This document shows positions 7,093 to 62,863 of a DNA stretch of 64,000 nucleotides, in pieces (position 1 is the stretch's first letter; the number at the start of each line of letters is the position of its first letter). Under the pieces are notes generated by a model, which saw nothing but the letters and a program-made list of their open reading frames with translations, had not been told where the DNA came from and did no database searches. Origin of the DNA: Amoebidium appalachense (taxonomy: Eukaryota; Protista; Ichthyosporea); the NCBI GenBank assembly GCA_963693365.1, contig CAVNZM010000001.1, positions 2,000,907-2,064,906 of the forward strand, read 5' to 3'. The position numbers and the translations under genes were made by a program.

Positions 7093-7428
7093 AGTATATT
7101 CGTTGTCTTTGTTTTAGTTCAAAGTAGTTTAGTTTTAGTTGAAAATAGGGTGACTCACCAATAGACGCGAGTGAGTACATCTATAGATCGTGATGTGCAA
7201 TCCTGTCTATTAATATACGTGTTATGATTGGACACATTAGATATGTTTGGATTTCGTTTTATCGTGATGTGTCTTCACTTTGAGAGTGTCGTTTTGGATT
7301 TTGTCCTGGTGCAGAGACTAGCGATCTTGCTAGCCTTGAGATCACAATCTAACCACTGCCGATGGTTGTGATGACGCCAGTAAAGGCGTGCTGGCTTTAA
7401 CCCCAGCGAGAAGAGTATGAGAAAAAGA

Positions 7429-7501
7429 TGATCCCGACGGGATTTGAACCCGCGACCCCTCTATCTCCGGTCGAGTGCTCTACCAACTGAGCTACGAGAT
7501 C
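7429..7501 (-). tRNA. tRNA-like gene inside TRIM LTR (anticodon position GGA; probably not a decoding tRNA)
   Basis: 73-nt cloverleaf: acceptor GATCTCG/CGGGATC, D arm GCTC-AGTTGGTA-GAGC, T arm GCGGG-TTCAAAT-CCCGT. A and B boxes intact, followed by TTTTT. Confidence 0.8.
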
Positions 7502-7764
7502 CGTTAAGATCTCGCAGGCCACCAGCCGATCATGATCTGATTCATGCGATCGGACTGGATAACGATACCATCTTCCAACATCCCCACTCAGGACGAATCG
7601 CAGGATCGCAACCTGTCTCCGCTACCATTTTGGATTTTGTCCTGGTGCAGAGACTAGCGATCTTGCTAGCCTTGAGATCACAACCTAACCACTGCCGATG
7701 GTTGTGATTACGCCAGTAAAGGCGTGCTGGCTTTTACCCCAGCGAGAAGAGGATGAGAAAAAGA

Positions 7765-7837
7765 TGATCCCGACGGGATTTGAACATGCGACCCCTCTAT
7801 CTCCGGTCGAGTGCTCTACCAACTGAGCTACGAGATC
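7765..7837 (-). tRNA. tRNA-like gene inside TRIM LTR (T-stem mutated)
   Basis: Same unit, with GCATGTTCAAAT in place of GCGGGTTCAAAT. Confidence 0.7.
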
Positions 7838-8428
7838 GGTTAAGATCTCGCGGGCCACCAGCCGATCATGATCTGATTCATGCGAAGGGACTGGATAACG
7901 ATACCATCTTCCAACATGTTGACTATTAGGAAGTATATGTATTTAGATGAGTTTCTTTATAGAGACGAGTATGAATATATATGTGTATTAATAGTGACAA
8001 GTTGTATAATTTACTTAAGGTATTAAGTAAGAGTTTCTAAGCTTCAGTTGTGTCGGAAGTTGGAATGCGTATGCTCTGTTGGAATGTGTTTTTCTATCAT
8101 CTGAAGGAACCGATTGACCGATGGTTCTCTTCTTTTAGTTGAGATAAGATGATAAGTGGGAAGTACAAAAAGACCCGAGAGCACAATAAAGTCAGTTGTT
8201 GTTGAAATCTTTCAAGTGTCGTGAACAACTCCGATTGCCCTCTCTTTATTGTGTTGGTCGTGTTTTACACCTCTGTGCACTCTGCTCCCTTAGACCCGTA
8301 CAAAACAACAGGTTAAAGGCCCGTTTTTGCACGCTCTCGCAACACATTTTCTCGCTGCAATCGCAACTATTCAAATTTGAATACCGATCTGATCTCTCTC
8401 CCGCGCATCGTCTGACTGATTGATCACC

Positions 8429-8767
8429 ATGTCGGAGAAGCCCGCGTACCTCAACCTCACCCCCTGGAAAGACCACGGACAAGAAGTCCGGTAAACGTCT
8501 TACCTATTATGAGTGGGAGCCCGTCATCTTCCGGTACCTGCACACCACCATCGCGGCCAAGTTAGTCCCGTCATCAAGGCCCCCGAGTGGGTCGATCCTT
8601 CTGACGAGAACGAGTGGCATGGCTATGACACTGAGCAGGCCTACACCGAGGCTTCCAACTTCCTTGAACAGATGTTTACTCAACTCGTCTCCAATGATGA
8701 GCTGTATAATTCTGGTCAAATTCACGATGATGTGTCACCTGCCCACGCTTTCCACAACCTCCGTATG
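8429..8767 (+). pseudogene. Copia-C gag N-terminus, frameshifted fragment
   Basis: MSEKPAYLNLTPW...KRLTYYEWEPVI...APEWVD...FHNLRM is homologous to Copia-B gag (MTDKPSYVNLPIW...YFEWEPLI...FHNLRM). Confidence 0.85.
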
Positions 8768-8915
8768 TGTTGGAAGATGGTATCGTTATCCAGTCCGATC
8801 GCATGAATCAGATCATGATCGGCTGGTGGCCTGCGAGATCTTAACCGATCTCGTAGCTCAGTTGGTAGAGCACTCGACCGGAGATAGAGGGGTCGCGGGT
8901 TCAAATCTCGTCGGG
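8768..8915 (+). mobile_element. Partial tRNA-bearing TRIM LTR (copy 3); tRNA-like part 8847-8915
   Basis: TGTTGGAAGATGGTATCG... identical to the TRIM LTR start. Inserted in Copia-C gag and truncated near the tRNA 3' end. Confidence 0.88.
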
Positions 8916-10429
8916 TGCATCTGTCGTATCCTATCGTGTATGTATTAGAGACGCGGCACTCTACTAAGTGTACACACACAGAAAGGAACGAACGTGTACG
9001 GAAAAACGGTAAAGTTTATTCAGACCAGGCTCCGACGGGCAAAACTTAGATCCGTACGGAATGAGGCTAAGTCACAACTGAGGCCATCAAGGCCGCGCCC
9101 TCAAAGATCATCATCACCTGCCCCCCCTACGATGCCACATTCCATACATTCCGATCTACTTTATCATGCGCCTGCACGAGCTAAGTCGATCTGCTCAAAC
9201 TTAATATATTTATCCATGTCTCACCCATCGCCCTTCCCCTAGTGGCACCGCAGAGTCTAAATCTACATTTCATACTATCCTCCCCCCCCCCTCCCTCCCC
9301 CCTTTCCTCTACATCGAAGTATATAAATACGTTTGGCAACATATACTATCAAAACTTGCCAATATTTACAAAAGGGCTTCTGCCCGAACATATCACATTC
9401 CTAAGTCCTCCTACGATCTATCATACACACTAATTAGAATTCTATTGGTCGGCTGCTCCAGCTGACGTAGTCCTGCCCTGCGCCGGCAGAGGCAAGATGC
9501 ACACAGCCAGGCACGCAGCTGTACAGCTATCTTGAGGCCCCGGACTTGATCTTGATGATCTGTGGACCCGGGCCACCCCCCCCCCCCCTGTCATCTTCAC
9601 TTGATTCACGGCAAGACTTAGAAGTTGAGTTTTGTATTTGTTTATTAGTTTGTTGTAGTTTGTTTCCTTTTCCTTCCTTCCTTTCTTTCTTTCTTTTCTT
9701 TCTGTTTCCGTGTACACCGATATCTTAGATCTGTGTACGTATCGACATACTTAGCTCGCGCACACGTATTGTCGTTTGTGTCAAAATCTATATATGTCAT
9801 CCAATCAAATCTCGTTTGTATTTTCCCAAATATAGTAACTTACATTCCTTTCTCATTCCTTTCTCACGACGTAGCATTGTGCTATGTTCTCCAACTATTA
9901 GGAATAATTATGTTTAGACGTGTTATGATAAGAACATGTATAATTGTATGTTATGAATTAATAGTTACATAAGTGGTTTCTTTTTGTTAAATGTTTCCGT
10001 GCTTTTACTAGAAGTTTCTTTCATTAGAGGATTGACTCTTTCATATTCTATGTATCGACAGACATTTTGATCGATATATTTTACACTCATAGTTTTCGTC
10101 CTTTTGATTGGAAAATAGAGATTTCGTTCTTTTGATTGGTTTATCGTTTTCACATTCCCAAGCATAAAAGGGACTTGGACAAGTATAAAAGGGACTTCAT
10201 CTTGGAATAAATCTTAAGCAGTCGTATTCACTTCCTATGGTTCCAGAAATCGTTCCACCTCTCCGGTTGTGTTTCTCCCGTGTGTCTCTGTGTTGTGTAT
10301 AACATAACACCCATCTGTGCTCTCTGCTTCTCCGTTTACCCACACAAAATAACAGGTTTACGACCCCTTTGCACGCTAACACACAATCTCGTTACAACCG
10401 CGAAATTCCTCAGTCTTACTGCTTCAATC

Positions 10430-14607: not shown

Positions 14608-17600
14608 TGTTAAATTGTATAAATATTTGGGATGAAAGCAGAGACACAGTGGTGCAGTGTGAAAACACCACAGACACACACAACAACAAAACACGGAACG
14701 ATCGGAGCAGTGTACACAACAGACATCAATGTTTAGACACGACTGAACTGAATTTATTCTGATCTTCGAATAAATACCTGAAATTCCTCTAAGTCCAATC
14801 CATACATGATTTCCGACCAGTCGGAAATCAGATCTATCTCTAATAGAAACCAATCACTAAGAACCAATTGCTTTCAGAGAGATCCGGTACGCGGAGACGT
14901 ACACGATAGGACACAGACACTAGTTAAGGTCAACTCGTGTCATCATCAAGGAAGTTCTAACCTATGACATACTGCAAAGACTCAGACATATCACACTTAA
15001 CCTTGATGATTGGTTAAAGCCCGGCAACACATGAAAACTAAAGTAAATTAACGAAGTCTAAACACACATGCTATTCTAAGTGTAGCCTAAGTGTGTCACC
15101 GTCCAATGAACACGTATTAAGTAACACAAATCTACCTAACATATATTAGTAGAAAAGAAACACGATTATACACATGAAGACAAGGAGAGAAAGAAAAGAA
15201 AATAAGGAAGGAGAAAGAGAAAGGAAAAGAGAGCACAGATCAACAAACAAGATAGTAATAGCATAACTATAACCAGAGATATTTATGTACACACGAACAT
15301 GTACACGTCTCTCCCTGAGTGGGTGGATCCGTGTACACACATATAAATATTCTAATCGATATTACAATACACGATTAGAGCCGATACAACACGATTACAA
15401 GTATACAAGCATATCGGAGATCGATGCTACACTTTACATAATAGGAGTGTGGCATATACACTAAGCATATGAACTGAAACATAACACAAACTGAGAAGAT
15501 CTTACCATATGTAAATACTACGTATTACAACATCCCCACTTAAGACTTTGAAGTTTGTGTTATCATATCCCCACTGAACTAGTGAAATCTCCCCACTTGA
15601 GAACAGAAACGGAAAAGAAAAGAAAAAATTAAAGTGTGTACTTTTCCCGGGGGGGGGGGGGGGGGGAGAAGGGGGGGGGGAGGGGGGGGGGGGGGGGGGG
15701 GGAAGGGGGGGGGGGGGGGGGAAGGGGGGGGGGAAGGGGGGGAGGGGGGGGGGGAAGAAACCGGGTCAAAAACAACGAATATGTATAAAGTGTATAGTCG
15801 GGTTTTGATTAACTGGGTTTTAAACCAGTGAAAGATAGAGTAGAGTCATGGTACAGGTCAAACCTTATATATAAACCCTAAGTGGGCATACCCACAAAGG
15901 CAAGATACATATGAAATGAGGATTATGATAAAGTAAGTAGTAAACATTAGAAAATCACTCTTGAAGTAGGACGGGTCAATCCACAATATCCGGCAAACAA
16001 AGTCGAGCACGATGGTGGACATGACTCGGGCCGGGGAGGGGTTTGGTGAGGATGTCAGCTAAGTTGTGGGCTGACTCAACGTAGTGGACAACCACGTCCC
16101 CACTTGCAATGTAGTCCTTGGTGTTGTGATACCGGACGGCAATGTGTTTGGTACGGTGCTTGATGCCGGTGGAGTTGACGATGGCAATGGTCGACTGGTT
16201 GTCACAGTACACCGGAGTCGGAGCAAGCATGGGACAGCCGAGTTCCTTGAAGAGGTCACGGACCCAAGCAACTTCTTGGGTGCCAGCATTGAGAGCAATC
16301 AGCTCAGCTTCAGTGGTGCTGGTGGCCGTGATGGGCTGGAGCTTGGAGTACCAGATGATGGGCATACCAGCAAACTCGATAATGTAGCCGGTGGTAGACT
16401 TCTTGCTGTCGGCACAACCAGCAAAGTCAGCATCCGTGTAGCATTCGAGTATGGGGGACTGGGTGGCCGAGTACTTGTAGTCAATGCCAAGGTCAATGGT
16501 GCCGAGCAGGTACCGGGCCACACGACGGAGAAGGTCCCAGTGAGTCTTGCCGGGGTTGGTGCTGAACCGACCGAGGAAGCCGATGGCATAGGCAATGTCG
16601 GGACGGGTGCACCGTGCCACCCAGAGGAGACGGCCGAGTAACTCACGGTAGGGCACGGTGAACGGTTGGGGGGGGCAGTCAGCCAGGGAGACGGTGGTGC
16701 CTGCAGGGATGGGGGTAGACTTGGACTTGGCATCGGTGAGGTTGAAGTCGTGGATGATATCCATGATGTAAGACCTCTGGTGCATGTGGAGGTGATGGGG
16801 ATCAGAGTGATTAAAATCAACACCGAGCATACGGTCAAATGGACTCATACGACAGCTGGCCATCTTGCTGATGTGGGCAGCCAGGTCACTGGCAGCAGTA
16901 GAACCCCGGGTGTTGGTGATGGTGGAGTCGTCGACGTAGTTACCAGCCCGAACCACATCGTTGTTGGGGAAGAACCGGAGGTAGATGCACGGATCGGTCT
17001 TAGTACGGGTCAGGCCATGGGCAAGAAGAATGCCGTCGAGGAAGTCGTACCAAGCCTTGGAGGCTTGCTTGAGGCCGTACAGGGCTTTCTTGAGTCTCCA
17101 GACCTTGCCAAGTGTGGCCATGGTGATGAATCCCGGGGGTTGTTTCATGTAGATGGTCTCGGTGAGTGGGCTGTTGAGAAAGGCCGTAGACACGTCGAGT
17201 TGATGGATGTCATGACCTTCAACAACGGCCAGAGCTAGGATAGCACGGAGAGCAGCCGGACGGATGACAGGGCTCTCAATCAACTCATAGTCAACACCGT
17301 ATTGCTGACTGAAGCCTTGAGCAACACCACGTGCCTTGATCTTGGTGTCACCAGCCGAGTTGAGAGTTTTCTCGGAGACAATCCACTTGAAGCCGACGAT
17401 GTTAGCACCAGGGGGAGGGTCAACAAGGTCAAAGATGTCTTTGTCGACGAAGGCTTGATACTCAGCAGTGAGGGCTGACTTGACCTGGTCACCATTGGGT
17501 CCGGAACACAGTTGACGGACAAGTTTGGGTAGTTGGTCGATGTTGATGGGGGGACCGGGGGGGACTGGGAGGGTGGTGGTGGCTTGAAAGCCAACCTTGC

Positions 17601-20600
17601 CCTGTAGACGGGCAGAACGACGGGGTGCAGGAACCGGGGGAGGTGGAGACGGGGGGGGGGGGGAACTTGGAAGTTCGGAATTGCAGGGGGGGCAACCTCC
17701 GGGCTGGACGGGGCCGAGTGGAAGTTGTCGGGGGAGCCGGGTCGGATGGGTGTGACGTTGCCAGGGGCAGGATGAGGGTCGGCAGGCTGGACGGGCACGG
17801 GGGCAGGGGGGCCGGTGGGGGGGGGGTGTCGGGGGAACGACGATGGCAGGAGGGGGGCCAGAGTACACCAGACAAACATCATCTTCAGTGTCAACTGTGG
17901 GGGGTGGGGTGGTCGAGGTAGCAGTGGTGTCGGGGGTCGGAAGTGTTGATGGAATGTCGGACGGGAGATAAGCTGATTCGTCGAAAATCACATCACGGAA
18001 GAGGCCGACACGATGGGTGGTGGGATTGAAGATCCGGTGGCAGTGTGAATGAAGATCATAGCCGATATACATGCCGAGTTTGACGGTGGGGGCCAGCTTG
18101 TTCCGTTTAGAGGCTGGCACGTGAGTGTAGGCAGGGCAACCGAACACTTTGAGCTCGGAGATGTCGGGCTTGACACCGTAGAAAATTTCGAATGGTGTAC
18201 GACCATTGGCAGTCGTGGACGGGGTGACGTTGATGATGTAGGCGGCATGTTGGAGAGCCTCAGCCCACAGTTTGGGGGACAGAGACTGATCTTGGACTTG
18301 ATGGAGGAGGCAACGGACAATCTCTTGGAGGAACCTCATACGACGTTCAACATAGCCGTTCAGTTGAGGGCAGTCCACCGGAGCATAGCTGGCCTTGATG
18401 CCCTGGGAGAGGCAAAAAGCACGGGTAGCCTTGGAGGTGAACTCAGAGCCGGAGTCGAAGTGGTAGACACCAACTTTGGAGGGGCCATGGGTGGCAACGA
18501 GGTTGGTGTGAGCTGTGAGAATGTCCAGGGTGGTGGTACGATCGGCCATCGGGTAGATCTTGACGAGTCCAGAGGCACGGCAGACAGTGACGAGAGCAAC
18601 CTTGGAACCTCCGTACGATGTTGTGGTAGGCTCAAAAAAATCCCAATGCCATTCATGACCGGGGATGTTGGAGTGAGGACGGTCACCCTTGAACGGAGCC
18701 TTGGTGGTTTTACCCATAATGCAGCCATGACAATCAGGAACATCACAGTCGAGGACAGACGAGGGGAGACCAATGACAAGGTCGTGTTTCACCATGTCCT
18801 TGATGCTGGTCATAGCACGGTGCCCCAGACGATGGTGCCAGATGGATGGGTTAACACTGGTAGTGGCAGCCAGAGCCACAGGACGAGTGGGTGGTTGAAT
18901 GGTGTAGTCCTTGAAGTAATACAGACCGTTGTGTAGACGGAGGTTGACGAGATGACGGCCGGTGAGTCGGTCGAAGAGGAATGACGGAGTGGAGGCATCA
19001 TTCAAATCACCCTTGATGTATTCGGCAGCAGCTTGGGATGTTGAAATGAGGAAGGCTTGGCCAGACGGGGTGTAGTAGGCTTCAATGGTAAGGGTGGCAG
19101 TGCCATGGTCGGTGGTGGTGTTGATGACGATATGGCCGGTGTGAGTGGCCAAGACGGGGGTGCCATTGAAGGCAGCAACGGGAGTCGGTGTCGGAAGGGG
19201 AGTGAGGTCATGGAAGAACTCACGGGTGGGGCAAACAGTCATGTTGCACCCGGAATCCCAGGCAGGGTCGGAGGACACGGGGACGGAGCTAGCATTGTAT
19301 GCCGAGAAAGCAAATGAGACAGATTTCTCACTGCCTTGACGGGAACGGTTGTGTCTGGACATACGGCATTTCGGCTCAGGGCAATCGATGATCGTGTGAT
19401 CAGGCTCGTGGCAGTAGGAGCATGCTTTCACGGACGGGGTGTTAGAACGAGCCGGGGAATCAGAACGACGGGAACCCGAGAAACGGGAACGACTGGGGGA
19501 ACGAGACGTGGACCGGAAGGCAGGCCGGTGGGGGGAACGGGATCGGGTGTGCTGACGGGAGAGACGAGTTCGGAGGTCCGTGCCAGGGGTACGGTCAAGT
19601 CGGTTGCGTAAGTCACGGCGAGGAAGATCACGGGGGGGAGCACTGGCATTTAATGCCATGCTGGACTTGGAGACACGGTGGGCACGGTTGCTCCGGAGTT
19701 GCATCTTGAGGTCTTGACGTAACTCGATGCCCTTGACGTGGTTGTGGAGGGACTCGAAGTCGGGGAATAGCTTATCACCGAAGTGATAGTCTTCGATAAG
19801 ACGGTTGAACTCAGGGGTGAGGTCGTCTCTGGTGGTGAGTTCATTGAAGAACTTCTCAGCGAGACGAGTGAAGTGAATGGACTCATCTTGGAGGGACTGG
19901 AGCTGGTTCACGATGGTCTGCAGACGACTCAGGGAGGTGGTGAATGATTCACCGGGCTGAAGGGCACAGGCATCCCACTGACGGTGAAGGATGCGGATCT
20001 GATCGGGTTTGCCTTGGAGGTAGTGTTGACGGAATTTCCACATGGCCCGTTCAGGGTCCATGCCAATACGGTACTGGGCAACGGTGGTGAGGACGGAAGG
20101 GTCGATGTTCTGTATCATATGGAGCAGGAGGCAATTGCGGGCCTCCTTGAGTTCCGCGGTAGTGCCGTAGCCATAGAAGGGGGGTTCACCGTCAACCGCG
20201 ACGGTGGTAGGGGGGACGTAGTTGTCAGCAAGTACAACATCCACGAGTCGGACACCTTTAGTGCCGGTCATCATGCCGAGAAAAATGATTTCCCATTGAA
20301 AATAGGTGGTTTTGCTATCGGGACCAGTCTTCCCTTCACCTTTCCACATGGTTATTTTGTTTACACCAGTTTTGTTTGGATCCATGATTGAAAAACGAGC
20401 GCTAGTTCTAGATGTGTGTAGGGAGCGTGCAAAAGGGCTGCATAACCTGTTAAATTATATAAGTATTTGGGATGAAAGCAGAGACACAGTGGTGCAGTGT
20501 GAAAACACCACAGACACACACAACAACAAAACACGGAACGATCGGAGCAGTGTACACGACAGACATCAATGTTTAGACACGACTGAACTGAATTTATTCT

Positions 20601-32383: not shown

Positions 32384-33244
<861 letters not shown>

Positions 33245-36866: not shown

Positions 36867-38053
36867 ATGCCGCCGAAAAAGCGCCAGGCCTCAGCCACCG
36901 CCCCTGCCGCGGCACCCAAGCGCCTGACCCGCAGCGACCTCCGCCACAGGCTGACCAACGCTCCCGCGGACACTGACGCGCCTCCAGCGGCCCATACCAC
37001 CACGGACCCGGACCCGCCGGCTAGTCCCCCCTCCCCTCCTGAAGTCCCCCCTCAGGCCCCGCCGTCCCCCGCAGATGACTTCTCAAGACGCCGTCCTTGC
37101 CGCCCTCACCGCCATCAGCACCCAGATGGCTGGCGTCCTGGCTGCTCTCACCAACCGCGACCCTCCCGCGCCCCCCGCCGCGCCCTCCGCACCCGGGGAG
37201 ATTTCCCCCGGGGCTGCATCTCGGCCCTGACCTAGACCTACCTGCCCTGCCCGCGCCCCCCATCACAGGTGAGAACACTGGCGACATTCAGCCGGGCACA
37301 CTCCCGCTTCCCCCCGCGGATGTGCTGGCAGATTTGCGCGCCAATCGTTTCGTCGACCTGTATAAGTTCACCCCCGCCGCCCTCCTGGCCCCATACAAGA
37401 AAGGTCAGCATCTGCGCATGGCCGACGACGGCAGCATCGAGACTTTTCGCCAGGACAAACCCGTTCCCCTGCGTTCACTCGTCATTTGGATCCAGGCTTG
37501 GACCCATTACATGGCCGCCAAGCACCACCTCGGCCTCCCCACGGACAAAGACGTACTTTGGACTCAGCACATCACTCGCCTCAGCTGGGCCCAGATCCAC
37601 AACTATGACGTATACGCCCGAACCGTTGCCCACCAGCAGGGTCGGGCTCCGATCGAGTGTCCCAACCTGCTCGCCCAACTCCACCAGGATCTCCTCTTGC
37701 CACCCACTCTGCTCATCCCGGACGCATGTCAGCGCTGTGGCTTCCCCGACCACCCCAGCGCGGCCTGCCCCATGTACCCCAAGCCCGGCTGTGGTCTTGA
37801 CGGCTTTAAGCCGCCCCACAAGCCCGGCGGGGGTCAAACCCCTAACCGCCCTGGCCCGCAACCCGGCCCGGCAAAACCGGCCCGACCCGTGGATCTACCC
37901 GCGACGCACTGCAGGAATTTCCACATTAACGGTCGGTCCTGCGCTAAGCAGCCCTGCCCCTTCTCCCACGTGTGCCCGCTGCTCTGGCACACACCCCCGC
38001 AAAGACTGCAAACACAATGCCTAGTCTACGCGCACACCCACATACACAGCTAG
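36867..38053 (+). CDS. Ngaro ORF1 (gag-like, C-terminal Cys/His zinc fingers), frameshifted
   Basis: MPPKKRQ... start; NRFVDLYKF, WIQAWTHY, CRNFHINGRSC..PCPFSHVC. Pieces lie in different frames. Confidence 0.82.
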
Positions 38054-38325
38054 AACATAGGGGTTAGGAGCTAGGACACACGAGTACAGGGAAACGGAGC
38101 TCGGGAGAACGGGCCCATAGGGCTGAGTACAAAATTTCGCAGGCCAAACTACGGCGCCCGCGCGCGTCAAGAATAAATGTCCCTACACAAAGACGTTTAT
38201 TCTGGCCACTGCACATAATTATACTCCCCCCCTCCCCCATCCCACGAGCCTCCCCCCCCCCCTTACACTCACCCAGCACTCCCTCCCCCCCCTTCTTCTA
38301 CCTCTGTGTCCGCCCACACCCCCGC

Positions 38326-38437
38326 GTGCTCGGGCACATTCCCCTGCACAGGGCCCCGCTGCCCTCCCTGCCAACCTTCACTCGGGCCCAGCTGCCCTAC
38401 TCTAACCCCCCCGGGGCCCTGCTGTTCCCCCCCCCCC

Positions 38438-38478
<41 letters not shown>

Positions 38479-40284
38479 CTGCCGGGATCTCCCCGAGGGT
38501 GCCCCACCCTTGCTAACCATCCCTTCCCCCGAGGCTCAGACCCGGAGGCCCGCCCGCTGCCTCAGCACCACATTGACACCTCCCGCCTCCGGGAACTGCT
38601 GGCCTCCTACCCAGACCAATCATTCGCCGCACAACTCCTCCACGATGTCGAATTCGGTGTCGACATCGGCTATCGCGGCCCCTCCACCTCTCGGGTGGGC
38701 CCCAACCTACCCACCACCCCGGAGGCAGCTTCCGCTATCACGGCGGATATTGCCAAAGAAGTCGCCCTCGGCCACCTGCGCGGCCCCCTCTCCCCAGCCC
38801 AATTCTTTGACGAATTTCCGGTCCACCGTTCCTCCCCCATCGGCGCCGTTACCAAGAAAGGGAACCCCCTCAAGTACCGTCGAATCCACCACCTCTCCTG
38901 GCCCCGGGGTAGCAGTGTCAATGACAGCATCACCTACCCCGACGAACTTCAGTACATTCGCGCCCGGGATGTCACCCAACTCATTCTCGACGCAGGCCCC
39001 GGCTGCTACATGGCCGTGGCAGATGTGCAGGCTGCCTTCCGGCACATGCCCATCCGACCGGAAGACCACCACTTAATGGCATTCAAATGGCAAGGGCATT
39101 TTTACGTTGAAACCAGACTGCCCTTCGGCCTGAAATCTAGCCCAGCCATCTGGGAACGGATCGTGGCCACCCTACAGTGGCTGGCACACCAGCACGGTAT
39201 TACCCTCATCCGCCACTACGTAGACGACTGGATTATAGTCGCCCCCACACAAGAGCAGTGCCAACGTCACCTATCCACCTTCCTGCAACTCTGCCGAGAG
39301 CTGCACATTGCCATCTCCGAAGACAAGATGCAGGGCCCGGCTACCCGTATCGTCTTCATCGGTATCGAATTCGACTCCATCGCCATGGAGGCACGAATCC
39401 CGGCTTCCAAGCTCTCGGACCTACTCGACCTCACTTCCCACCCAAAGCCCACCATCACCATTCGGGACCTCCAGTCCCTCCTCGGCAAACTCACCTGGTG
39501 TGCCCAGCTGGTTCCCCCCGGGAGGGCCTTCTCCCAGCGCCTATGGGCCCTTCTCCGGACCCACCCACACCTTGCCGGCCACCACCACATACGACTGACT
39601 GCTGCCGCCCGGGCCGACATAGCCGAATGGCACCAGTTCCTCACATCATGGAATGGGGTGCACCTCATCACACCCCCCACATACACCACCCTGGCCACCG
39701 ATGCTGCCGGATCGGTGGGTCTAGGAGGCCACTGGCTCGACCAATGGTTCTTCATGCCCTGGTCCCCCTCCACCCAAGCCCTCTATGCTCATGAGGGTAA
39801 ACTCGGTTCTTCCGTCATCGAACTCCTGGCCATCGCAGCCGCCGTGGCCCTCTGGGCCCCCTCCTGGTCCACCCACCATGTCCGTATTTTATGCGACAAC
39901 ACGGGTGCTGTGTCTGACCTGCACTCCCGGTCTTCCCCCCACCCCGTGATGGCCAAACTTATTCGGTTCATCACCCGCATGGAAATGCAATACCAATTTA
40001 CCTTACAGGCATCCTACCTACCAGGACCCCTCAACCATCTGGCCGATGCCATTTCTCGTAACCAACTTCCCCGGGCCCGACGACTCCGACCTTCCCTGCA
40101 ACCGGAGCCCTGCCGCTTCCCCTCCTGGGTCCACGAGCTCCTATCCCTTCCCTTGGGCTACCCCCCCCCCCCCCCCCCCCCCCAGATCTCCCGTTCCGGA
40201 GCAACGCTGGCAGATTGGCCCCCCACTTTGCTCCGGCCGAGCTGCTTCGAGCCACCACTACCCTGCAGGAATGCCAAGCCCTGA
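38326..40284 (+). CDS. Ngaro/DIRS reverse transcriptase-RNase H
   Basis: SSPIGAVTKK, KYRRIHHLS, ADVQAAFRHMPI, LPFGLKSSP, HYVDDW, TDAAG, ELLAI, CDN, NHLADAISR. True start uncertain. Confidence 0.92.
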
Positions 40285-41247
40285 GTCTCAACCTCGACTC
40301 TCGGGCCTTTTACTCCCGGGTGCAAAAAGTGTTCATCGATTTCTGTGTGGCATCTCGGCTGCAATCCCCCTCCGGGTCCTCCCTCCCGGCCTCCCCACAC
40401 ACCGTGCAACTTTTTTCTCGCCTGGTGTGCCCAACGAGGGGTACAGGCCTCTTCCTTAACCGGCTACAATTCGGCCATCACCAGGCTCCACCTCGACATG
40501 GGCCTCCCTGCTCCCTACCCCCACGACAAGTCTCTGGCCTGGTTCCTACGGGGGGTGGGCAGATGGCAGCTTTCTCACAACATCCGACCCCGCTCATCAA
40601 CCAGGGAACCCCTCCTGCCCTCCCACCTCAGCCTACTTCATGGCCAGTGCCCCACAAAGGCCTCCTCGGCCAATCTCCGGCTATGGACAGCCCTCATCGT
40701 CGGTTTCTGTGGCCTCCTCCGTTCAGGGGAATTTACCTCCAAGACCCTGACTTCTTTCAACCCGTCCCGTCACGTTAAACGGAAAGACGTGACCTTCACC
40801 TACACCCCCACCGGTACTTTGTCCCATGCCACCCTCCACCTGCCAACCTCTAAGACGGATGTACAGGCCCGAGGTGTCAACGTCACTCTAGCTGCCCTGC
40901 CCCTCACCCACTTCTCCCCAGCCCATCTCCTCCGGCAGTTCCTGGATACAACGTCCGGTCAACCCGACGACCCCCTCTTCAGTCTCGGTGGCATCCCCTA
41001 CACCAAGAGTGCTTTCTCTGCCGAGTTCCGTGCCCTCCTCTCCCGGGCAGGCCTCTCACCCTCCCGGTTTGCCGGACACAGCCTCCGCATCGGGGGGGCC
41101 ACAGCACTGGCTGAGGCCGGGGTCGACGACTCCCGGATCAAACAACTCGGCAGGTGGTCCTCCGACTGTTTCCTGATCTATACACGACTTCGTCCGGCCT
41201 CCATTGCTGCCACTACCACACGTGTATTCGCCTCGATTCTTAAGTGA
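40215..41247 (+). CDS. Tyrosine recombinase of the retroelement (one frameshift near 40400)
   Basis: GFCGLLRSGE, LPTSKTD, GHSLRIGGAT, LGRWSSDCFLIY: the R-K-H-R-W-Y catalytic set. Confidence 0.92.
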
Positions 41248-50906: not shown

Positions 50907-52080
50907 TCATCGTGTGGTCTTCTACTACACCTGGGGCCCTGGACAGCAGCTTCCTCTACACTGCTTCCCAGTTGGAACGTCTACTACTACGATTCTGTAT
51001 ATGTATTTTTTTTTTTTTGCCTTAAGTGGGGTTTGCCCACTTTAAGGGTTCATCGATTAGCACAACACATATACACCTGAGGCTAGCCACCTTTGCGAAT
51101 ACTGCCGACTCCCAGTCCCACTGAGTCACAACACATAGGTTAATGTTTCCACGGCTGGCTCCCGTTCTTATATATATTATATCTTCACCTGCATATTTTT
51201 TTTTCTTCCTTGGTTGTTTTCCTTCCTTTGCTGTTGTTGCCCCCCCCCCCCCCCCCCCCCCCCCCCGGCGCCCCATCCTTTAATTTTTATTTCTTTTTAT
51301 TTATTTTTTCACTTTCCGTTTCCGTTCTCAAGTGGGGAGTTTTTAGAGATTCAGTGGGGATATATGTGAGAACACAAACTTCAAGTCTTAAGTGGGGATG
51401 TTGAAGTACGTAGTTTGTACATGTGTAAGATCTTTCAGTTTGTGTTTATGATTCAGTTCATAGCATTAATGTAAAAGTCACCCTCCTTGTTCGTAAAACT
51501 GTTAATCGATCTCAAAATATGTTTTCGTGTCTGTAATCGTGTCATATTGGCTCTAATCGTGTGTTGATCTAAAGATTAGAATATAGATATGTGCCTGCAC
51601 GAATCCACTCAGTAGGAGTGCTCGTGCATATGTTTGTGTGTACATGAATATCTTATGTTGTAACTGTGCTATCGTGTTCATGTTTGTTGTTCTGTGTTCC
51701 TCTCTTTTTCTCTCTTCTCTTCTTCTCTTTTCTTTCCTCCTTTTCCCTGGTGTTCATGTGTGTGATCACTGTTCTTTCTCCCTAATATATGTTGAGTCAA
51801 TTCGTGTGAAGTAGATGTGTTTTGATTGAAAGAAAAACACATAGGCTACACCATGTACTATTTTATGTGTCAATAGTTTATTCAACTATGTTTGTTTTGC
51901 GAATTGCCGCGGTCTAACCAATCACTAGACTAGTCATAACGTGTCCCTGCCGTTAACCTCAATAATAGGTTAGAAATTAGTGTCAAGGTTTACAGTTTCT
52001 TTGTTGGAAGATGGTATCGTTATCCAGTCCGATCGCATGAATCAGATCATGATCGGCTGGTGGCCCGCGAGATCTTAACC

Positions 52081-52153
52081 GATCTCGTAGCTCAGATGGT
52101 AGAGCACTCGACCGGAGATAGAGGGGTCGCGGGTTCAAATCCCGTCGGGATCA
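52081..52153 (+). tRNA. tRNA-like gene in TRIM 5' LTR (anticodon loop CCGGAGA)
   Basis: 73-nt cloverleaf with A box TAGCTCAGATGG, B box GGTTCAAATCC and a T5 tract at 52156-52160. Confidence 0.8.
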
Positions 52154-52450
52154 TCTTTTTCTCATCCTCTTCTCGCTGGGGTAAAAGCCAGCACGCCTTT
52201 ACTGGCGTCATCACAACCATCGGCAGTGGTTAGGTTGTGATCTCAAGGCTAGCAAGATCGCTAGTCTCTGCACCAGGACAAAATCCAAAATGGTAGCATG
52301 AACAGGGGTTCAGTGGGGACTGAGGGGGCAGTCCACCCTAACCTGATTCTGCGATTCGTCCTGAGTGGGGATGTTGGAAGATGGTATCGTTATCCAGTCC
52401 GATCGCATGAATCAGATCATGATCGGCTGGTGGCCTGCGAGATCTTAACC

Positions 52451-52523
52451 GATCTCGTAGCTCAGTTGGTAGAGCACTCGACCGGAGATAGAGGGGTCGC
52501 GGGTTCAAATCCCGTCGGGATCA
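52451..52523 (+). tRNA. tRNA-like gene in TRIM 3' LTR
   Basis: Same cloverleaf as 52081-52153; A box TAGCTCAGTTGG. Confidence 0.8.
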
Positions 52524-54229
52524 TCTTTTTCTCATCCTCTTCTCGCTGGGGTAAAAGCCAGCACGCCTTTACTGGCGTCATCACAACCATCGGCAGTGGT
52601 TAGGTTGTGATCTCAAGGCTAGCAAGATCGCTAGTCTCTGCACCAGGACAAAATCCAAAATTCTTCGTGACTGTGTTCTTATGCCTTGCCGTGATCTATT
52701 GCGAGTGTTGGATCTATTGTTGTTTTTGTACGTGTCTAAGGGAGCAGAGTGCACAGAGGTGTCATGTAAAACACGACTAACACATTAATGAGAGGGCAAT
52801 CGGAGTTGTTCACGAGACATTGAAAGATTCAAACAACAACTGATTCTTTATTGTGCTCTCGGTTCCTTTTGTACTTGCGACTTATCAGCTTATCACAACT
52901 AAAGAGGGAGAACCAATCGGTTCTATCAGAAGACAGAAAAACACATTCCGACAGAGCATACGCATTCCAACTTCCGATTAAACTAAAGTTTAGAAACTCT
53001 TACTTAAATAAATTAAGTAATTATACATCTAGTCACTATTAACTCACATATATATTTATGTTCGTCTCTATAAAGAAACCTATTTAAATACATATATTTC
53101 CTAATAGTCGACACTCTCAAAGTGAAGACACTTTGCAATAAACCGAATTCCATATATATCTATTGTCCAATCACAACACACATATATTAACAGACAGGAA
53201 TGCACAACACAATCTACAGATGTACTCGCTCGCGACTATGTAAACAGTTGGACTAGTTAGGATAAGGCAGAGTACAACTGAATCAAAATAAAGACAGAGA
53301 ACGGGTAGAAAGGCACATGCGGCCAGGTTGCTTTTACTATGGGCCGACTCAGTCTGTCTCAGACTTCACTGATGTGATCCCCGTACTGGGACGGCTTTCT
53401 TATATAGCCCCCAGGTTTCGGATCAAGGCCCAGGATTGGTTCATCCGCGGCCAGCGCGGGTGGCAACATGCCATTCGTGATTCTGGTGCGGTCCGAGCCA
53501 GTCAGACCTTTGTCCTATTTATGCAAACCTCTTATTGGTTCACTTCGTTTATGTGGTATGCAGCTGAAGAACCATATATGGTTCAATTCTTAGATCAGAG
53601 TGAGTCCTATTGGTGCGGACATAATATTTATGTGATATTCATGACAAAGCACGAATCGTGTGCTAGTAGATCACATTCTTTAGTAAACATGTACAGTTCA
53701 TGTGTACAGTTGTTTACACTCCCCCCCTTGTCGGGAGCCTGGTGGTGTCGTTAGACAAGCAAACCACCAGGCTGAGAGGCGATAAACAACCTTCAGCGAG
53801 AATTCTTGTGCGCCGAGCTGCTGGGCAGAACAGAGCAAGGACGGTTGAATAGAGTTGTGCACGTCTATGAGCACTTCTTCATTTGCCAAAACGTAAATTC
53901 ATGCAGCATTCTTCTGTGATTTCATTTTCGTGGCGAAGATTGTTGCAGAGTGTGCGTGCGAATAATTCGCTAAGCCTTCGTCTCTGTGCTTGGCTTTTCT
54001 GTAGAAGTAGTATTTTCCTTTTTGGGAATTTTTCCTTTTTAGGATACTCCCGCAGATTCGTTTTCAATTGCGAGTAATTTGGTTGTGTGGATGAATGATC
54101 ATACCAAACATTCGATAATGAATATAACTCGAGCCTTAGGTCACTTCGTAGCTCAGGTAGTGGTGGATAGCTTCAAGGCTTAGCCACTGCTCCTTATCCC
54201 GGTTCTACCATAAGACTGTAAGGCGAGTC

Positions 54230-57076: not shown

Positions 57077-58453
57077 CACAAAGAAGGAAAGCAGACACGA
57101 ATACAAACAAGCTAGGACACATACATACTTCAAGGCTCTTGCTGTCATACATGGTGAGGTATTCCAACATCCCGACTCAAGGGGTTGAAGTTTGTGTTCT
57201 CGTGTCTGTTGATGTGACGGTAGATGAGGTCCAAACACAGGAGGGGCCGTCACACTCAAGTTTCCCCACTCGAGGATGCAAACCGAAGATCCTTGAGGTG
57301 GGAAGGAGAGAATCAAAACTGAAGAGGCACACAACGACGGTTGCCTCTGAAGACTCGAAATAAGATATCATGGTGGTTATCGGCGATATATATATATATA
57401 TAGGAAACACTAGTGTATGTGTGACGTGTTGGTGGCTAATGGTTTATACTGGGGACCACCCATTTATGTTGTAATACGTAGTATTTACATATGGTAAGAT
57501 CTTCTCAGTTTGTGTTATGTTTCAGTTCATATGCTTAGTGTAAATGCCACACTCCTATTATGTAAAGTGTAGCATCGATCTCCGATATGCTTGTATACTT
57601 GTAATCGTGTTGTATCGGCTTTAATCGTGTATTGTAATATCGATTAGAATATTTATATGTGTGTACACGGATCCACCCACTCAGGGAGAGACGTGTACAT
57701 GTTCGTGTGTACATAAATATCTCTGGTTATAGTTATGCTATTACTATCTTGTTTGTTGATCTGTGCTCTCTTTTCCTTCCTCTTTCTCCTTCCTTATTTT
57801 CTTTTCTTTCTCTCCTTGTCTTCATGTGTATAATCGTATTTCTTTTCTACTAATATATGTTAGGTAGATTTGTGTTACTTAATACGTGTTCATTGGACGG
57901 TAACACACTTAGGCTACACTTAGAATAGCATGTGTGTTTAGACTTCATTAATTCACTTTAGTTTTCATGTGTTGCCGGGCTTTAACCAATCATCAAGGTT
58001 AAGTGTGATATGTCTGAGTCTTTGCAGTATGTCATAGGTTAGAACTTCCTTGATGATGACACGAGTTGATCCTAACTAGTGTCTGTGTCCTATCGTGTAC
58101 GCCTCCGCGTACCGGATCTCTCTGAAAGCAATTGGTTCTTAGTGATTGGTTTCTATTAGAGATGGATCTGATTTCCGACTGGTCGGAAATCATGTATGGA
58201 TTGGACTTAGAGGAATTTCAGGTATTTATTCGAAGATCAGAATAAATTCAGTTCAGTCGTGTCTAAACATTGATGTCTGTTGTGTACACTGCTCCGATCG
58301 TTCCGTGTTTTGTTGTTGTGTGTGTCTGTGGTGTTTTCACACTGCACCACTGTGTCTCTGCTTACATCCCAAATACTTATAGAAATTAACAGGTTATGCA
58401 GCCCTTTTGTACGCTCCCTACACACATCTAGAACTCGCGCTCGTTTTTCAATC

Positions 58454-61400
58454 ATGGATCCAAACAAAACTGGCGTAAACAAAATCACCATGTGGAAAGG
58501 TGAAGGGAAGACTGGTCCCGATAGCAAAACTACCTATTTTCAATGGGAAATCATTTTTCTCGGCATGATGACCGGCACTAAAGGTGTCCGACTCGTGGAT
58601 GTTGTCCTTGCTGACAACTACGTCCCCCCTACCACCGTCGCGGTTGACGGTGAACCCCCCTTCTATGGCTACGGCACTACCGCGGAACTCAAAGAGGCCC
58701 GCAATTGCCTCCTGCTCCATATGATACAGAACATCGACCCTTCCGTCCTCACCACCGTTGCCCAGTACCGTATTGGCATGGACCCTGAACGGGCCATGTG
58801 GAAATTCCGTCAACACTATCTCCAAGGCAAACCCGATCAGATCCGCATCCTTCACCGTCAGTGGGATGCCTGTGCCCTTCAGCCCGGTGAATCATTCACC
58901 ACCTACCTGAGCCGTCTGCAGACCATCGTGAACCAGCTCCAGTCTCTCCAAGATGAGTCCATTCACTTCACTCGTCTAGCTGAGAAGTTCTTCAATGAAC
59001 TCACCACCAGAGACGACCTCACCCCTGAGTTCAATCGTCTTATCGAAGACTATCACTTCGGTGATAAGCTATTCCCCGACTTCGAGTCCCTCCATAACCA
59101 CGTCAAGGGCATCGAGTTACGTCAAGACCTCAAGATGCAACTCCGGAACAACCGTGCCCACCGTGCCTCCAAGTCCAGCATGGCATTAAATGCCAGTGCT
59201 CCCCCCCGTGATCTTCCTCGCCGTGACTTACGCACCCGACTTGACCGTACCTCTGGCACGGACCTCCGAACTCGTCTCTCCCGTCAGCACACCCGATCCC
59301 GTTCCCCCCACCGGCCTGCCTTCCGGTCCACGTCTCGTTCCCCCAGTCGTTCCCGTTTCTCGGGTTCCCGTCGTTCTGATTCCCCGGCTCGTTCTAACAC
59401 CCCGTCCGTGAAAGAATGCTCCTACTGCCACGAGCCTGATCACACGATCATCGATTGCCCTGAGCCGAAATGCCGTATGTCCAGACACAACCGTTCCCGT
59501 CAAGGCAGTGAGAAATCTGTCTCCTTTGCTTTCTCGGCATACAATGCTAGCTCCGTCCCCGTGTCCTCCGACCCTGCCTGGGATTCCGGGTGCAACATGA
59601 CTGTTTGCCCCACCCGTGAGTTCTTCCATGACCTCACTCCCCTTCCGACACCGACTCCCGTTGCTGCCTTCAATGGCACCCCCGTCTTGGCCACTCACAC
59701 CGGCCATATCGTCATCAACACCACCACCGACCATGGCACTACCACCCTAACCATTGAAGCCTACTACACCCCGTCTGGCCAAGCCTTCCTCATTTCAACA
59801 TCCCAAGCTGCTGCCGAATACATCAAGGGTGATTTGAACGATGCCTCCACTCCGTCATTCCTCTTCGACCGACTCACCGGCCGTCATCTCGTCAACCTCC
59901 GTCTACACAACGGTCTGTATTACTTCAAGGACTACACCATTCAACCACCCACTCGTCCTGTGGCTCTGGCTGCCACTACCAGTGTTAACCCATCCATCTG
60001 GCACCATCGTCTGGGGCACCGAGCTATGACCAGCATCAAGGACATGGTGAAACACGACCTTGTTATTGGTCTCCCCTCCTCTGTCCTCGACTGTGATGTT
60101 CCTGATTGTCATGGCTGCATTATGGGTAAGACCACCAAGGCTCCGTTCAGGGGTGACCGTCCTCACTCCAACATCCCCGGTCATGAATGGCATTGGGATT
60201 TTTTTGAGCCTACCACAACATCGTACGGAGGTTCCAAGGTTGCTCTCGTCACTGTCTGCCGTGCCTCTGGCCTCGTCAAGATCTACCCGATGGCCGACCG
60301 TACCACCACCCTGGATATTCTCACAGCTCACACCAACCTCGTTGCCACCCATGCCCCCTCCAAAGTTGGTGTTTACCACTTCGACTCCGGCTCTGAGTTC
60401 ACCTCCAAGGATACCCGTGCTTTTTGCCTCTCCCAGGGCATCAAGGCCAGCTATGCTCCGGTGGACTGCCCTCAACTGAACGGCTATGTTGAACGACGTA
60501 TGCGGTTCCTCCAAGAGATTGTCCGTTGCCTCCTCCATCAAGTCCAAGATCAGTCTCTGTCTCCCAAACTGTGGGCTGAGGCCCTCCAACATGCCGCCTA
60601 CATCATCAACGTCACCCCGTCCACGACTGCCAATGGTCGTACACCATTCGAGGTTTTCTACGGTGTCAAGCCCGACATCTCCGAGCTCAAAGTGTTCGGT
60701 TGCCCTGCCTACACTCACGTGCCAGCCTCTAAACGGAACAAGCTGGCCCCCACCGTCAAACTCGGCATGTATATCGGCTATGATCTTCAATCACACTGCC
60801 ACCGGATCTTCAATGCCACCACCCATCGTGTCGGCCTCTTCCGTGATGTGATTTTCGACGAATCAGCTTATCTCCCGTCCGACATTCCATCAACCCTTCC
60901 GACCCCCGACACCACTGCTACCTCGACCACCCCACCCCCCACAGTTGACACTGAAGATGATGTTTGTCTGGTGTACTCTGGCCCCCCTCCTGCCATCGTC
61001 GTTCCCCCGACACCCCCCCCCCCCACCGGCCCCCCTGCCCCCGTGCCCGTCCAGCCTGCCGACCCTCATCCTGGCCCTGGCAACGTCACACCCATCCGAC
61101 CCGGCTCCCCCGACAACTTCCACTCGGCCCCGTCCAGCCCGGAGGTTGCCCCCCCTGCACTTCCGAACTTCCAAGTTCCCCCCCCACCGTCTCCACCTAC
61201 CCCGGTTCCTGCACCCCGTCGTTCTGCCCGTCTCCAGGGCAAGGTTGGACTTCAAGCCACCACCACCCTGCCAGTCCCCCCCGGTCCCCCCATCAACATC
61301 GACCAACTACCCAAACTTGTCCGTCAACTCTGTTCCGGACCCAATGGTGATCAGGTCAAGTCAGCCCTGACTGCTGAGTATCAAGCCTTCGTCGACAAAG

Positions 61401-62863
61401 ACATCTTTGAACTTGTTGACCCTCCCCCTGGTGCTAACATCGTCGGCTTCAAGTGGATTGTCTCCGAGAAAACTCTCAACTCGGCTGGTGACACCAAGAT
61501 CAAGGCACGTGGTGTTGCTCAAGGCTTCAGTCAGCAATACGGTGTTGACTATGAGTTGATTGAGAGCCCTGTCATCCGTCCGGCTGCTCTCCGTGCCATC
61601 CTAGCTCTGGCCGTTGTTGAAGGTCATGACATACATCAACTCGACGTGTCTACGGCCTTTCTCAACAGCCCACTCACCGAGACCATCTACATGAAACAAC
61701 CCCCGGGATTCATCACCATGGCCACACTTGGCAAGGTCTGGAGACTCAAGAAAGCCCTGTACGGCCTCAAGCAAGCCTCCAAGGCTTGGTACGACTTCCT
61801 CGACGGCATTCTTCTTGCCCATGGCCTGACCCGTACTAAGACCGACCCGTGCATCTACCTCCGGTTCTTCCCCAACAACGATGTGGTACGGGCTGGTAAC
61901 TACGTCGATGACTCCACCATCACCAACACCCGGGGTTCTACTGCTGCCAGTGACCTGGCTGCCCACATCAGCAAGATGGCCAGCTGTCGTATGAGTCCAT
62001 TTGACCGTATGCTCGGTGTTGATTTTAATCACTCTGATCCCCATCACCTCCACATGCACCAGAGGTCTTACATCATGGATATCATCCACGACTTCAACCT
62101 CACCGATGCCAAGTCCAAGTCTACCCCCATCCCTGCAGGCACCACCGTCTCCCTGGCTGATTGCCCCCCCCAACCGTTCACCGTGCCCTACCGTGAGTTA
62201 CTCGGCCGTCTCCTCTGGGTGGCACGGTGCACACGTCCCGACATTGCCTATGCCATCGGCTTCCTTGGTCGGTTCAGCACCAACCCCGGCAAGACTCACT
62301 GGGACCTTCTCCGTCGTGTGGCCCGGTACCTGCTCGGCACCATTGACCTTGGCATTGACTACAAGTACTCGGCCACCCAGTCCCCCATACTCGAATGCTA
62401 CACGGATGCTGACTTTGCTGGTTGTGCCGACAGCAAGAAGTCTACCACCGGCTACATTATCGTGTTTGCTGGTATGCCCGTCATCTGGTACTCCAAGCTC
62501 CAGCCCATCACGGCCACCAGCACCACTGAAGCTGAGCTGATTGCTCTCAATGCTGGCACCCAAGAAGTTGCTTGGGTCCGTGACCTCTTCAAGGAACTCG
62601 GCTGTCCCATGCTTGCTCCGACTCCGGTGTACTGTGACAACCAGTCGACCATTGCCATCGTCAACTCCACCGGCATCAAGCACCGTACCAAACACATTGC
62701 CGTCCGGTATCACAACACCAAGGACTACATTGCCAGTGGGGACGTGGTTGTCCACTACGTTGAGTCAGCCCACAACTTAGCTGACATACTCACCAAACCC
62801 CTCCCCGGCCCGAGTCATGTCCACCATCGTGCTCGACTTTGTTTACCGGATATTGTGGATTGA
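58454..62863 (+). CDS. Intact Ty1/copia gag-pol polyprotein (1469 aa from MDPNK)
   Basis: All domain motifs lie in one frame. The ORF track extension back to 58280 starts at a non-ATG codon within the LTR. Confidence 0.96.
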   Translation: MDPNKTGVNKITMWKGEGKTGPDSKTTYFQWEIIFLGMMTGTKGVRLVDVVLADNYVPPTTVAVDGEPPFYGYGTTAELKEARNCLLLHMIQNIDPSVLTTVAQYRIGMDPERAMWKFRQHYLQGKPDQIRILHRQWDACALQPGESFTTYLSRLQTIVNQLQSLQDESIHFTRLAEKFFNELTTRDDLTPEFNRLIEDYHFGDKLFPDFESLHNHVKGIELRQDLKMQLRNNRAHRASKSSMALNASAPPRDLPRRDLRTRLDRTSGTDLRTRLSRQHTRSRSPHRPAFRSTSRSPSRSRFSGSRRSDSPARSNTPSVKECSYCHEPDHTIIDCPEPKCRMSRHNRSRQGSEKSVSFAFSAYNASSVPVSSDPAWDSGCNMTVCPTREFFHDLTPLPTPTPVAAFNGTPVLATHTGHIVINTTTDHGTTTLTIEAYYTPSGQAFLISTSQAAAEYIKGDLNDASTPSFLFDRLTGRHLVNLRLHNGLYYFKDYTIQPPTRPVALAATTSVNPSIWHHRLGHRAMTSIKDMVKHDLVIGLPSSVLDCDVPDCHGCIMGKTTKAPFRGDRPHSNIPGHEWHWDFFEPTTTSYGGSKVALVTVCRASGLVKIYPMADRTTTLDILTAHTNLVATHAPSKVGVYHFDSGSEFTSKDTRAFCLSQGIKASYAPVDCPQLNGYVERRMRFLQEIVRCLLHQVQDQSLSPKLWAEALQHAAYIINVTPSTTANGRTPFEVFYGVKPDISELKVFGCPAYTHVPASKRNKLAPTVKLGMYIGYDLQSHCHRIFNATTHRVGLFRDVIFDESAYLPSDIPSTLPTPDTTATSTTPPPTVDTEDDVCLVYSGPPPAIVVPPTPPPPTGPPAPVPVQPADPHPGPGNVTPIRPGSPDNFHSAPSSPEVAPPALPNFQVPPPPSPPTPVPAPRRSARLQGKVGLQATTTLPVPPGPPINIDQLPKLVRQLCSGPNGDQVKSALTAEYQAFVDKDIFELVDPPPGANIVGFKWIVSEKTLNSAGDTKIKARGVAQGFSQQYGVDYELIESPVIRPAALRAILALAVVEGHDIHQLDVSTAFLNSPLTETIYMKQPPGFITMATLGKVWRLKKALYGLKQASKAWYDFLDGILLAHGLTRTKTDPCIYLRFFPNNDVVRAGNYVDDSTITNTRGSTAASDLAAHISKMASCRMSPFDRMLGVDFNHSDPHHLHMHQRSYIMDIIHDFNLTDAKSKSTPIPAGTTVSLADCPPQPFTVPYRELLGRLLWVARCTRPDIAYAIGFLGRFSTNPGKTHWDLLRRVARYLLGTIDLGIDYKYSATQSPILECYTDADFAGCADSKKSTTGYIIVFAGMPVIWYSKLQPITATSTTEAELIALNAGTQEVAWVRDLFKELGCPMLAPTPVYCDNQSTIAIVNSTGIKHRTKHIAVRYHNTKDYIASGDVVVHYVESAHNLADILTKPLPGPSHVHHRARLCLPDIVD

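Follow-up and report, generated by a model that had tools for sequence, protein, structure and literature searches.

A Helenus-type TRIM copy from Amoebidium with an apparent, miscopied record of its initiator tRNA-Met primer

During replication of an LTR element, synthesis of the plus strong-stop strand proceeds through the LTR into the primer tRNA, which is still attached to the minus strand. The m1A58 modification is general in eukaryotic initiator tRNAs. Muthuswami reportedly described primer over-extension in HIV-1, or in lentiviruses, in 2002. An over-extension paper is cited in the available part of PMC6088434. The retroviral plus strand stops before m1A58, and HIV-1 also makes longer products (P3-P5); according to the portions available of two papers, over-extended products end at 55 or 54 and still transfer, because the primer over-extension sequence adjoins the PBS (PMC13191261; PMC8599865). 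In Ty1 and Ty3 the plus strand stops after 12 nt, the strand is discarded and the primer sequence is not inherited (PMC5371799, in the part available), and Ty1 pairs with its primer by extra boxes outside a 10-nt PBS (PMC3592414, likewise in part). In RNA-seq m1A58 leaves both RT arrest and misincorporation, and where m1A is followed by A the C signal given in vitro by a laboratory RT is low overall (PMC4787781, as excerpted). The biochemistry of both events, extension beyond 58 and miscoding at m1A, is known.

The closest described element family is Helenus (TRIMp3), described by Kojima 2024 (PMC10886601). In the available text it is defined by two LTRs, a total length below ~1 kb, no coding capacity, a tRNA-like LTR sequence, a PBS and polypurine tract (PPT) and a target-site duplication (TSD) of 4-5 bp. 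Transcription by RNA polymerase III is proposed there, unvalidated, and mobilisation is attributed to fungal-type Copia with the same primer site, acting in trans (PMC10886601).

The TRIM family and the elements around it

The whole stretch of Amoebidium appalachense DNA that we analysed (64,000 nucleotides, hereafter the window) is a cluster of nested Copia elements with one tyrosine-recombinase retroelement. Open Copia frames lie at 58274-62863 and 15976-20454 (1529 and 1492 codons), their best RT relatives being 40% identical, and the tyrosine-recombinase retroelement (37079-41247) has gag-like, RT-RNase H and YR frames, with the nearest YR relative 55% identical. A protein search with gag returned no close named relative, and inspection by eye of the unique stretches of the window revealed no evident host gene. 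Within this nest lies a short TRIM element, copy A, with the following features:

7292-7916, minus strand: TRIM copy A, Helenus-type, 625 bp with LTRs of 289 bp
7628-7916, minus strand: 5' LTR of copy A, 289 bp, TGTTGG...CCAAAA
7292-7580, minus strand: 3' LTR of copy A
7581-7627, minus strand: interior of copy A, 47 bp, PBS region and PPT
7581-7589, minus strand: polypurine tract GAGTGGGGA, adjoining the 3' LTR
7765-7837, minus strand: tRNA-like sequence in the 5' LTR, with A and B boxes (Rfam tRNA, 42.3 bits)
7429-7501, minus strand: tRNA-like sequence in the 3' LTR (Rfam tRNA, 57.4 bits), followed by a T5 run
7287-7291, minus strand: target-site duplication CGACA, identical to the empty sites near 32960 and 53110
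7917-7921, minus strand: target-site duplication CAACA, 1 mismatch

The two LTRs of copy A differ at 10/289 positions. The 5' LTR contains two adjacent double substitutions, 7886-7887 GA>CT and 7786-7787 GG>AT, and the second damages the B-box stem of the tRNA-like sequence, breaking the T stem beside the B box. Copy A is inserted in the apparent LTR of an older Copia, whose gag-like frame and Copia-type PBS lie at ~8310-8760, and the last 8 nt of its polypurine tract also close the Copia 3' region. Further members of the family are a second full copy and an LTR fragment:

52002-52660, plus strand: TRIM copy B, 659 bp with LTRs of 289 bp and a family-type 81-bp interior (52291-52371)
52291-52306, plus strand: family PBS in copy B, 7 nt complementary to tRNA 76-70, 4 unmatched, 5 complementary to tRNA 65-61
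52345-52354, plus strand: family T-arm box in copy B, complementary to tRNA 56-47 by 9 Watson-Crick pairs and one G-U, the candidate landing site
52308-52319, plus strand: internal PPT-like 12-mer in copy B, exact in Copia 3' regions (63219, 15579, 484) and missing in copy A
8768-8922, plus strand: fragment C, 5' part of a same-family LTR, ending just past the tRNA-like sequence

Copy B has a perfect TTCTT TSD, and its LTRs show 2 differences. Fragment C begins at the first base of the LTR and sits in a truncated Copia gag, and the Copia 3' regions sharing the 12-mer contain several GTGGGGA tracts in a row.

Both full copies are short and without coding capacity (625 and 659 bp, 289-bp LTRs), ARAGORN detects the tRNA-like sequence with A and B boxes in 5/5 LTR copies, with Rfam scores as listed, and a PBS and PPT lie between LTRs flanked by 5-bp TSDs, one perfect and one with 1 mismatch against the empty site. 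By its structure the TRIM family of copies A and B is a new member of Helenus. Four short motifs of the family were absent from the text of one Helenus supplement, in which wrapped sequences would escape such a search. The available part of PMC10886601 reports no split PBS, T-arm box or inherited tRNA copy in Helenus. ARAGORN labels the LTR sequence 'tRNA-Ser(GGA)', but at 73 nt and with no long variable arm we did not count it as a functional tRNA. The LTRs of the family end in CCAAAA, not CA (7292-7297, 52655-52660), and despite these ends the TSDs are clean and the PBS follows the LTR directly, without a spacer.

The family and the Copia elements of the window have the PPT, the LTR start and the 12-mer in common, whereas the Copia PBSs are of the anticodon-loop and not the 3'-end type, and the helper element of the TRIM family may lie elsewhere. 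Such anticodon-loop (half-tRNA) PBSs occur in three Copia families (58391-58404, 10352-10363, 8311-8322); the first of them fits the initiator anticodon arm of metagenome genes with one extra base, and the TRIM family uses the 3' end of the same tRNA.

The interior of copy A and its likeness to initiator tRNA-Met

The interiors measure 47 bp in copy A and 81 bp in copy B, as an earlier note on this DNA had stated. That note had also described a degenerate PBS in copy B and a downstream site, GATTCTGCGA, resembling the complement of the T arm; the sequence is as described, whereas the PBS proved to be the family norm rather than a decayed one. We checked the family form in contigs of 7 of 24 listed public runs, presumed to be RNA (5 samples, 3 organisms). 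Contigs of X8, X12, X11 and X2 (4/7 runs) bridge the site with 47 letters replacing 13, which is the 81-bp form, and the other three runs (X1, X13 and X14) hold loose ends of that form. The 81-bp interior with its split PBS is the family norm and, because the runs bridge the long form, the 47-bp form is derived and not, as would have told against the reading of the earlier note, the ancestral consensus. In the LTR alignment there is no column where both LTRs of copy A differ from both LTRs of copy B; the changes in copy A are all private, and in the absence of a shared marker its parent had family-type LTRs.

The short interior itself has depth 0 at 7612-7619 in 4/4 runs, and no listed contig piece spans it in the remaining runs among the 7; since assembled contigs lose rare variants and filtering leaves out some records, its absence is not decisive. 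At 7709, X1, X11 and X2 show another letter at full depth in place of the one private to the LTR of copy A, and these runs seem to lack the copy A insertion, or to have dropped it. Copy A is the only short-interior copy found.

The runs also revealed variation of other kinds. Loose ends in X13 and X14 show a variant of the family PBS (window 7621-7627) in which the 5-nt island, the part pairing with tRNA 65-61, has a single change, and one X13 contig has a short inverted piece of the PBS beside the LTR end. At LTR position 65 (window 7852, alignment column 66) the 5' LTR has C and the 3' LTR has T in each of the two full TRIM copies, and T prevails in the runs (2450/2552 in X1, 26901/26995 in X14); the occurrence of this pattern in separate insertions may reflect unequal LTRs in a common parent or an error that recurs in plus-strand synthesis.

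Read on the opposite strand, most of the interior of copy A resembles the 3' part of a tRNA:

7598-7627, plus strand: tRNA-sense stretch, initiator tRNA-Met positions 47-76, comprising T arm, acceptor strand and CCA
7609, plus strand: tRNA position 58, C where initiator genes have A

This was the central observation of the earlier note, and both its letters and its register were confirmed: window position equals 7551 plus tRNA position, so that 7610-7627 are positions 59-76, 7609 is position 58 and 7598 is position 47, and the stretch folds into a 5-bp stem with a 7-nt loop. The interiors of copies A and B agree in their first 7 nt and last 23 nt, and between these in a 5-nt island and 3 letters; copy A has 17 letters in place of 51 family letters, a net loss of 34 nt. 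Nine of the 30 letters of the stretch are new with respect to the family (7604, 7608-7611 and 7617-7620), the other 21 being family sequence. In tRNA numbering the nine fall at 69-66 in the acceptor strand, at 60-57 in the T loop and at 53; eight fit initiator tRNA, the exception being the letter at position 58. The apparent copy runs from 76 to 53 at the minimum and to 47 at the maximum. Because the family PBS already has the CCA, this ending alone is no proof of an RNA template. Every plain 34-nt deletion of copy B leaves at least 9 mismatches to copy A, against 0.8 expected at the LTR rate of copy A (Poisson P 2e-7), and within the window no other source was found for any 9-mer or longer from the 17 middle letters.

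We searched metagenomes with a pattern derived from 7598-7627, in which positions 52-57, 59-62 and 66-73 were fixed, and are thus no test, and 58 and 63-65 were free. Over 21 of 64 parts it gave at least 124 matches in at least 122 loci. Among the matches listed, 101 passed the filter as initiator tRNA-Met genes (30 distinct), all of them genes of other organisms with this acceptor strand, and A58 is present in 101/101, which speaks against an encoded C58, the outcome that would have undone the proposal of a misread base; the other 23 matches listed have 19 A, 2 T, 1 C and 1 G at this position. Likeness to the 30 distinct genes starts at 47 (T in 25/30, with C48 in 30/30) and stops at 46 and 45, where 30/30 genes have G and the window has A. 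The closest initiator gene among the matches listed differs from the copy A stretch at 3/27 letters, and the exact 24-letter pattern of copy A had 0 metagenome matches.

Three of the matches listed, two of them distinct, are CCA-ended, and position 58 is non-A in 2/2 of these vs 1/114 distinct others (Fisher p 4.5e-4). One (L084; 322 bases seen of a 1190-bp metagenome contig) has a CA end and then a CCA-ended initiator copy at 151-175. Over 47-73 it equals a real initiator gene except for A58>C, and it ends at 47, like copy A. It appears to be an independent, unrelated case of the same A58>C change, beside a putative LTR. The other CCA-ended sequence, found twice (L011 = L099), is ambiguous: its position 58 is T, its T stem is imperfect and a CA end is absent. 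Its region 27-175 holds an ARAGORN tRNA-Gln call and, after it, a tRNA-like stretch that ends in CCA and contains an anticodon-like hairpin. In viral contigs a looser CCA pattern had 38 + 2 = 40 matches, all lacking a T stem of 5 pairs, and we took them as chance.

The family T-arm box begins 38 nt past the 16-nt PBS region and is not adjacent to the PBS. Scored without copy A it reaches 9/10, and 356/20000 shuffles were as good (p 0.018, a modest value). With initiator T arms of other species, 4 to 96 of 100 shuffles matched the box equally well, and their pairing with it is uninformative because positions 49-51 differ.

Over-copying of the primer and competing explanations

In copy A the plus-strand RT probably overran the initiator tRNA-Met primer, misread m1A58 and landed on the T-arm box. 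Priming of the family RNA would start from the 3' end of the tRNA, with the T-arm box assisting as the Ty1 boxes do. The tRNA copy would normally not be inherited, as in Ty1 and Ty3, and this would be why the imperfect family PBS persists. In the replication that gave rise to copy A, the first plus strong-stop strand would have run past 59, put G opposite m1A58 and continued at least to 53, probably to 47. Its 3' end would then have paired with the minus-strand copy of the T-arm box, with the intervening stretch (34 nt net, including the internal PPT-like tract) looped out; the product would have integrated, and the heteroduplex would have been resolved to the plus-strand version. A long overrun would be the surviving product because a strand ending at 59 or 58 has a mismatched 3' end on the family PBS, so that only a strand reaching the T-arm box could be extended. 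The sequence of events put forward in the earlier note, misincorporation at m1A58, further copying and transfer to a second site, is thus supported, with corrections. One concerns the 18-nt PBS that it took as normal: this holds in retroviruses, whereas the 12 nt copied in Ty1 and Ty3 (PMC5371799, in the part available) fit the TRIM family better. Against the proposed mechanism stand the facts that copy A is a single case, that none of the seven runs shows it and that C is the less common misread in vitro.

Position 64 of the copy A stretch is G. In yeasts G64 of the tRNA is the Rit1 ribosylation target, according to the available part of PMC7694415, and if Amoebidium ribosylates G64, the RT possibly had a second barrier to pass.

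The same over-copying and misplaced transfer could have started from a tRNA with unmethylated A58, with the C a later mutation or an assembly base error. Loss of m1A58 lets RT run on, and C is the rarer misread in vitro. A later change at exactly position 58 has a chance of ~1.7% per site at the LTR rate (10/289), the same A58>C change is present in L084, and base errors should be rare, given the 98-100% identity among long repeats of the window and the two open Copia frames of ~1500 codons. Copy A is indeed aged (10/289 LTR differences, one TSD mismatch), but we regard this explanation as unlikely.

It is somewhat less likely again that the 47-bp interior is a relic of, or was recombined from, an older long-PBS subfamily, the 81-bp form having arisen by Copia-like PPT insertion and PBS decay before it was amplified. 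This would agree with the greater divergence of the copy A LTRs (10 vs 2 differences), with the extra piece of copy B, which looks acquired as it has the 12-mer in common with Copia 3' regions, and with the presence in copy B of both T-stem halves, as expected of a split 30-mer. Yet the LTR pair of copy A has no common marker against the family, it is the long form that contigs of the runs bridge, and an older subfamily would merely shift the over-copying event to an earlier time.

Post-insertion DNA repair, or gene conversion from a tRNA gene or a free tRNA cDNA between the microhomologies of PBS and box, is in our view very improbable. A gene donor would give A58 (101/101 among the matches listed), and the tRNA attached to the minus strand in the element's own replication is a far likelier donor; nevertheless, the replaced stretch is flanked by microhomologies, and the CCA, being in the family PBS anyway, does not distinguish the two. 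We give least credence to a plain deletion with drift, or an assembly artefact, that is tRNA-like by chance, since, although copy A is without independent read support and 21/30 letters are family sequence, at least 9 substitutions in 17 nt in exact T-loop register have the P value given above (2e-7), and the pattern derived from copy A retrieves 101 real initiator genes among the matches listed.

If the over-copying mechanism is accepted, it may be, and we put this forward only tentatively, that the T-arm box serves as a remote primer-over-extension site, which would both assist the initiator tRNA in binding to a 7-nt PBS and rescue overruns at the cost of a deletion. Rescued copies, with their end at 47 and C58 in unrelated eukaryotes, might then form a genomic record of m1A58, of a next block at 46-47 and of RT misreading in the cell, where G would be inserted, unlike with laboratory RTs.

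Comparison with retroviral and Ty priming

In the open-access literature we found no description of a genomic LTR-element copy that fixes an m1A58 misread, nor of a remote landing box that deletes interior sequence. Copy A is single and without sign of spread, and would have little biological effect of its own. Should its proposed origin be right, assemblies keep accidental cDNA copies of modified tRNAs, from which modification sites and the miscoding of RT in the cell could be read from DNA, even without tRNA data. Copy A would also be an exception, arisen in nature, to the non-inheritance of primer sequence in Ty1 and Ty3, and would illustrate one way for an element to mend its PBS or change to another.

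A parallel to the proposed transfer is HIV-1, where RT likewise passes 58 and the longer strand transfers via a tRNA-complementary sequence beyond the PBS. In HIV-1, and in lentiviruses and spumaviruses as far as the available texts go, that sequence adjoins the PBS, transfer is clean, unmethylated A58 is tied to extension and the strand stops at 55-54. In copy A, by contrast, the site lies 38 nt past the PBS island, 34 nt are deleted, the copy passes 53, and base 58 appears miscopied and is fixed in a eukaryote genome. C is rare in vitro where m1A is followed by A, yet both clear genomic cases, copy A and L084, have C.

In its predicted priming the TRIM family resembles Ty1 and Ty3, with an initiator tRNA-Met primer, a short PBS with separate boxes for other tRNA arms, and a PBS that seems not to be rewritten; that the family keeps a 7-nt PBS would fit the Ty pattern. 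Ty1 and Ty3 are autonomous and their first strong-stop DNA is a dead end, whereas copy A is an apparent escape from it, in which the tRNA-bearing strand would have been transferred and integrated.
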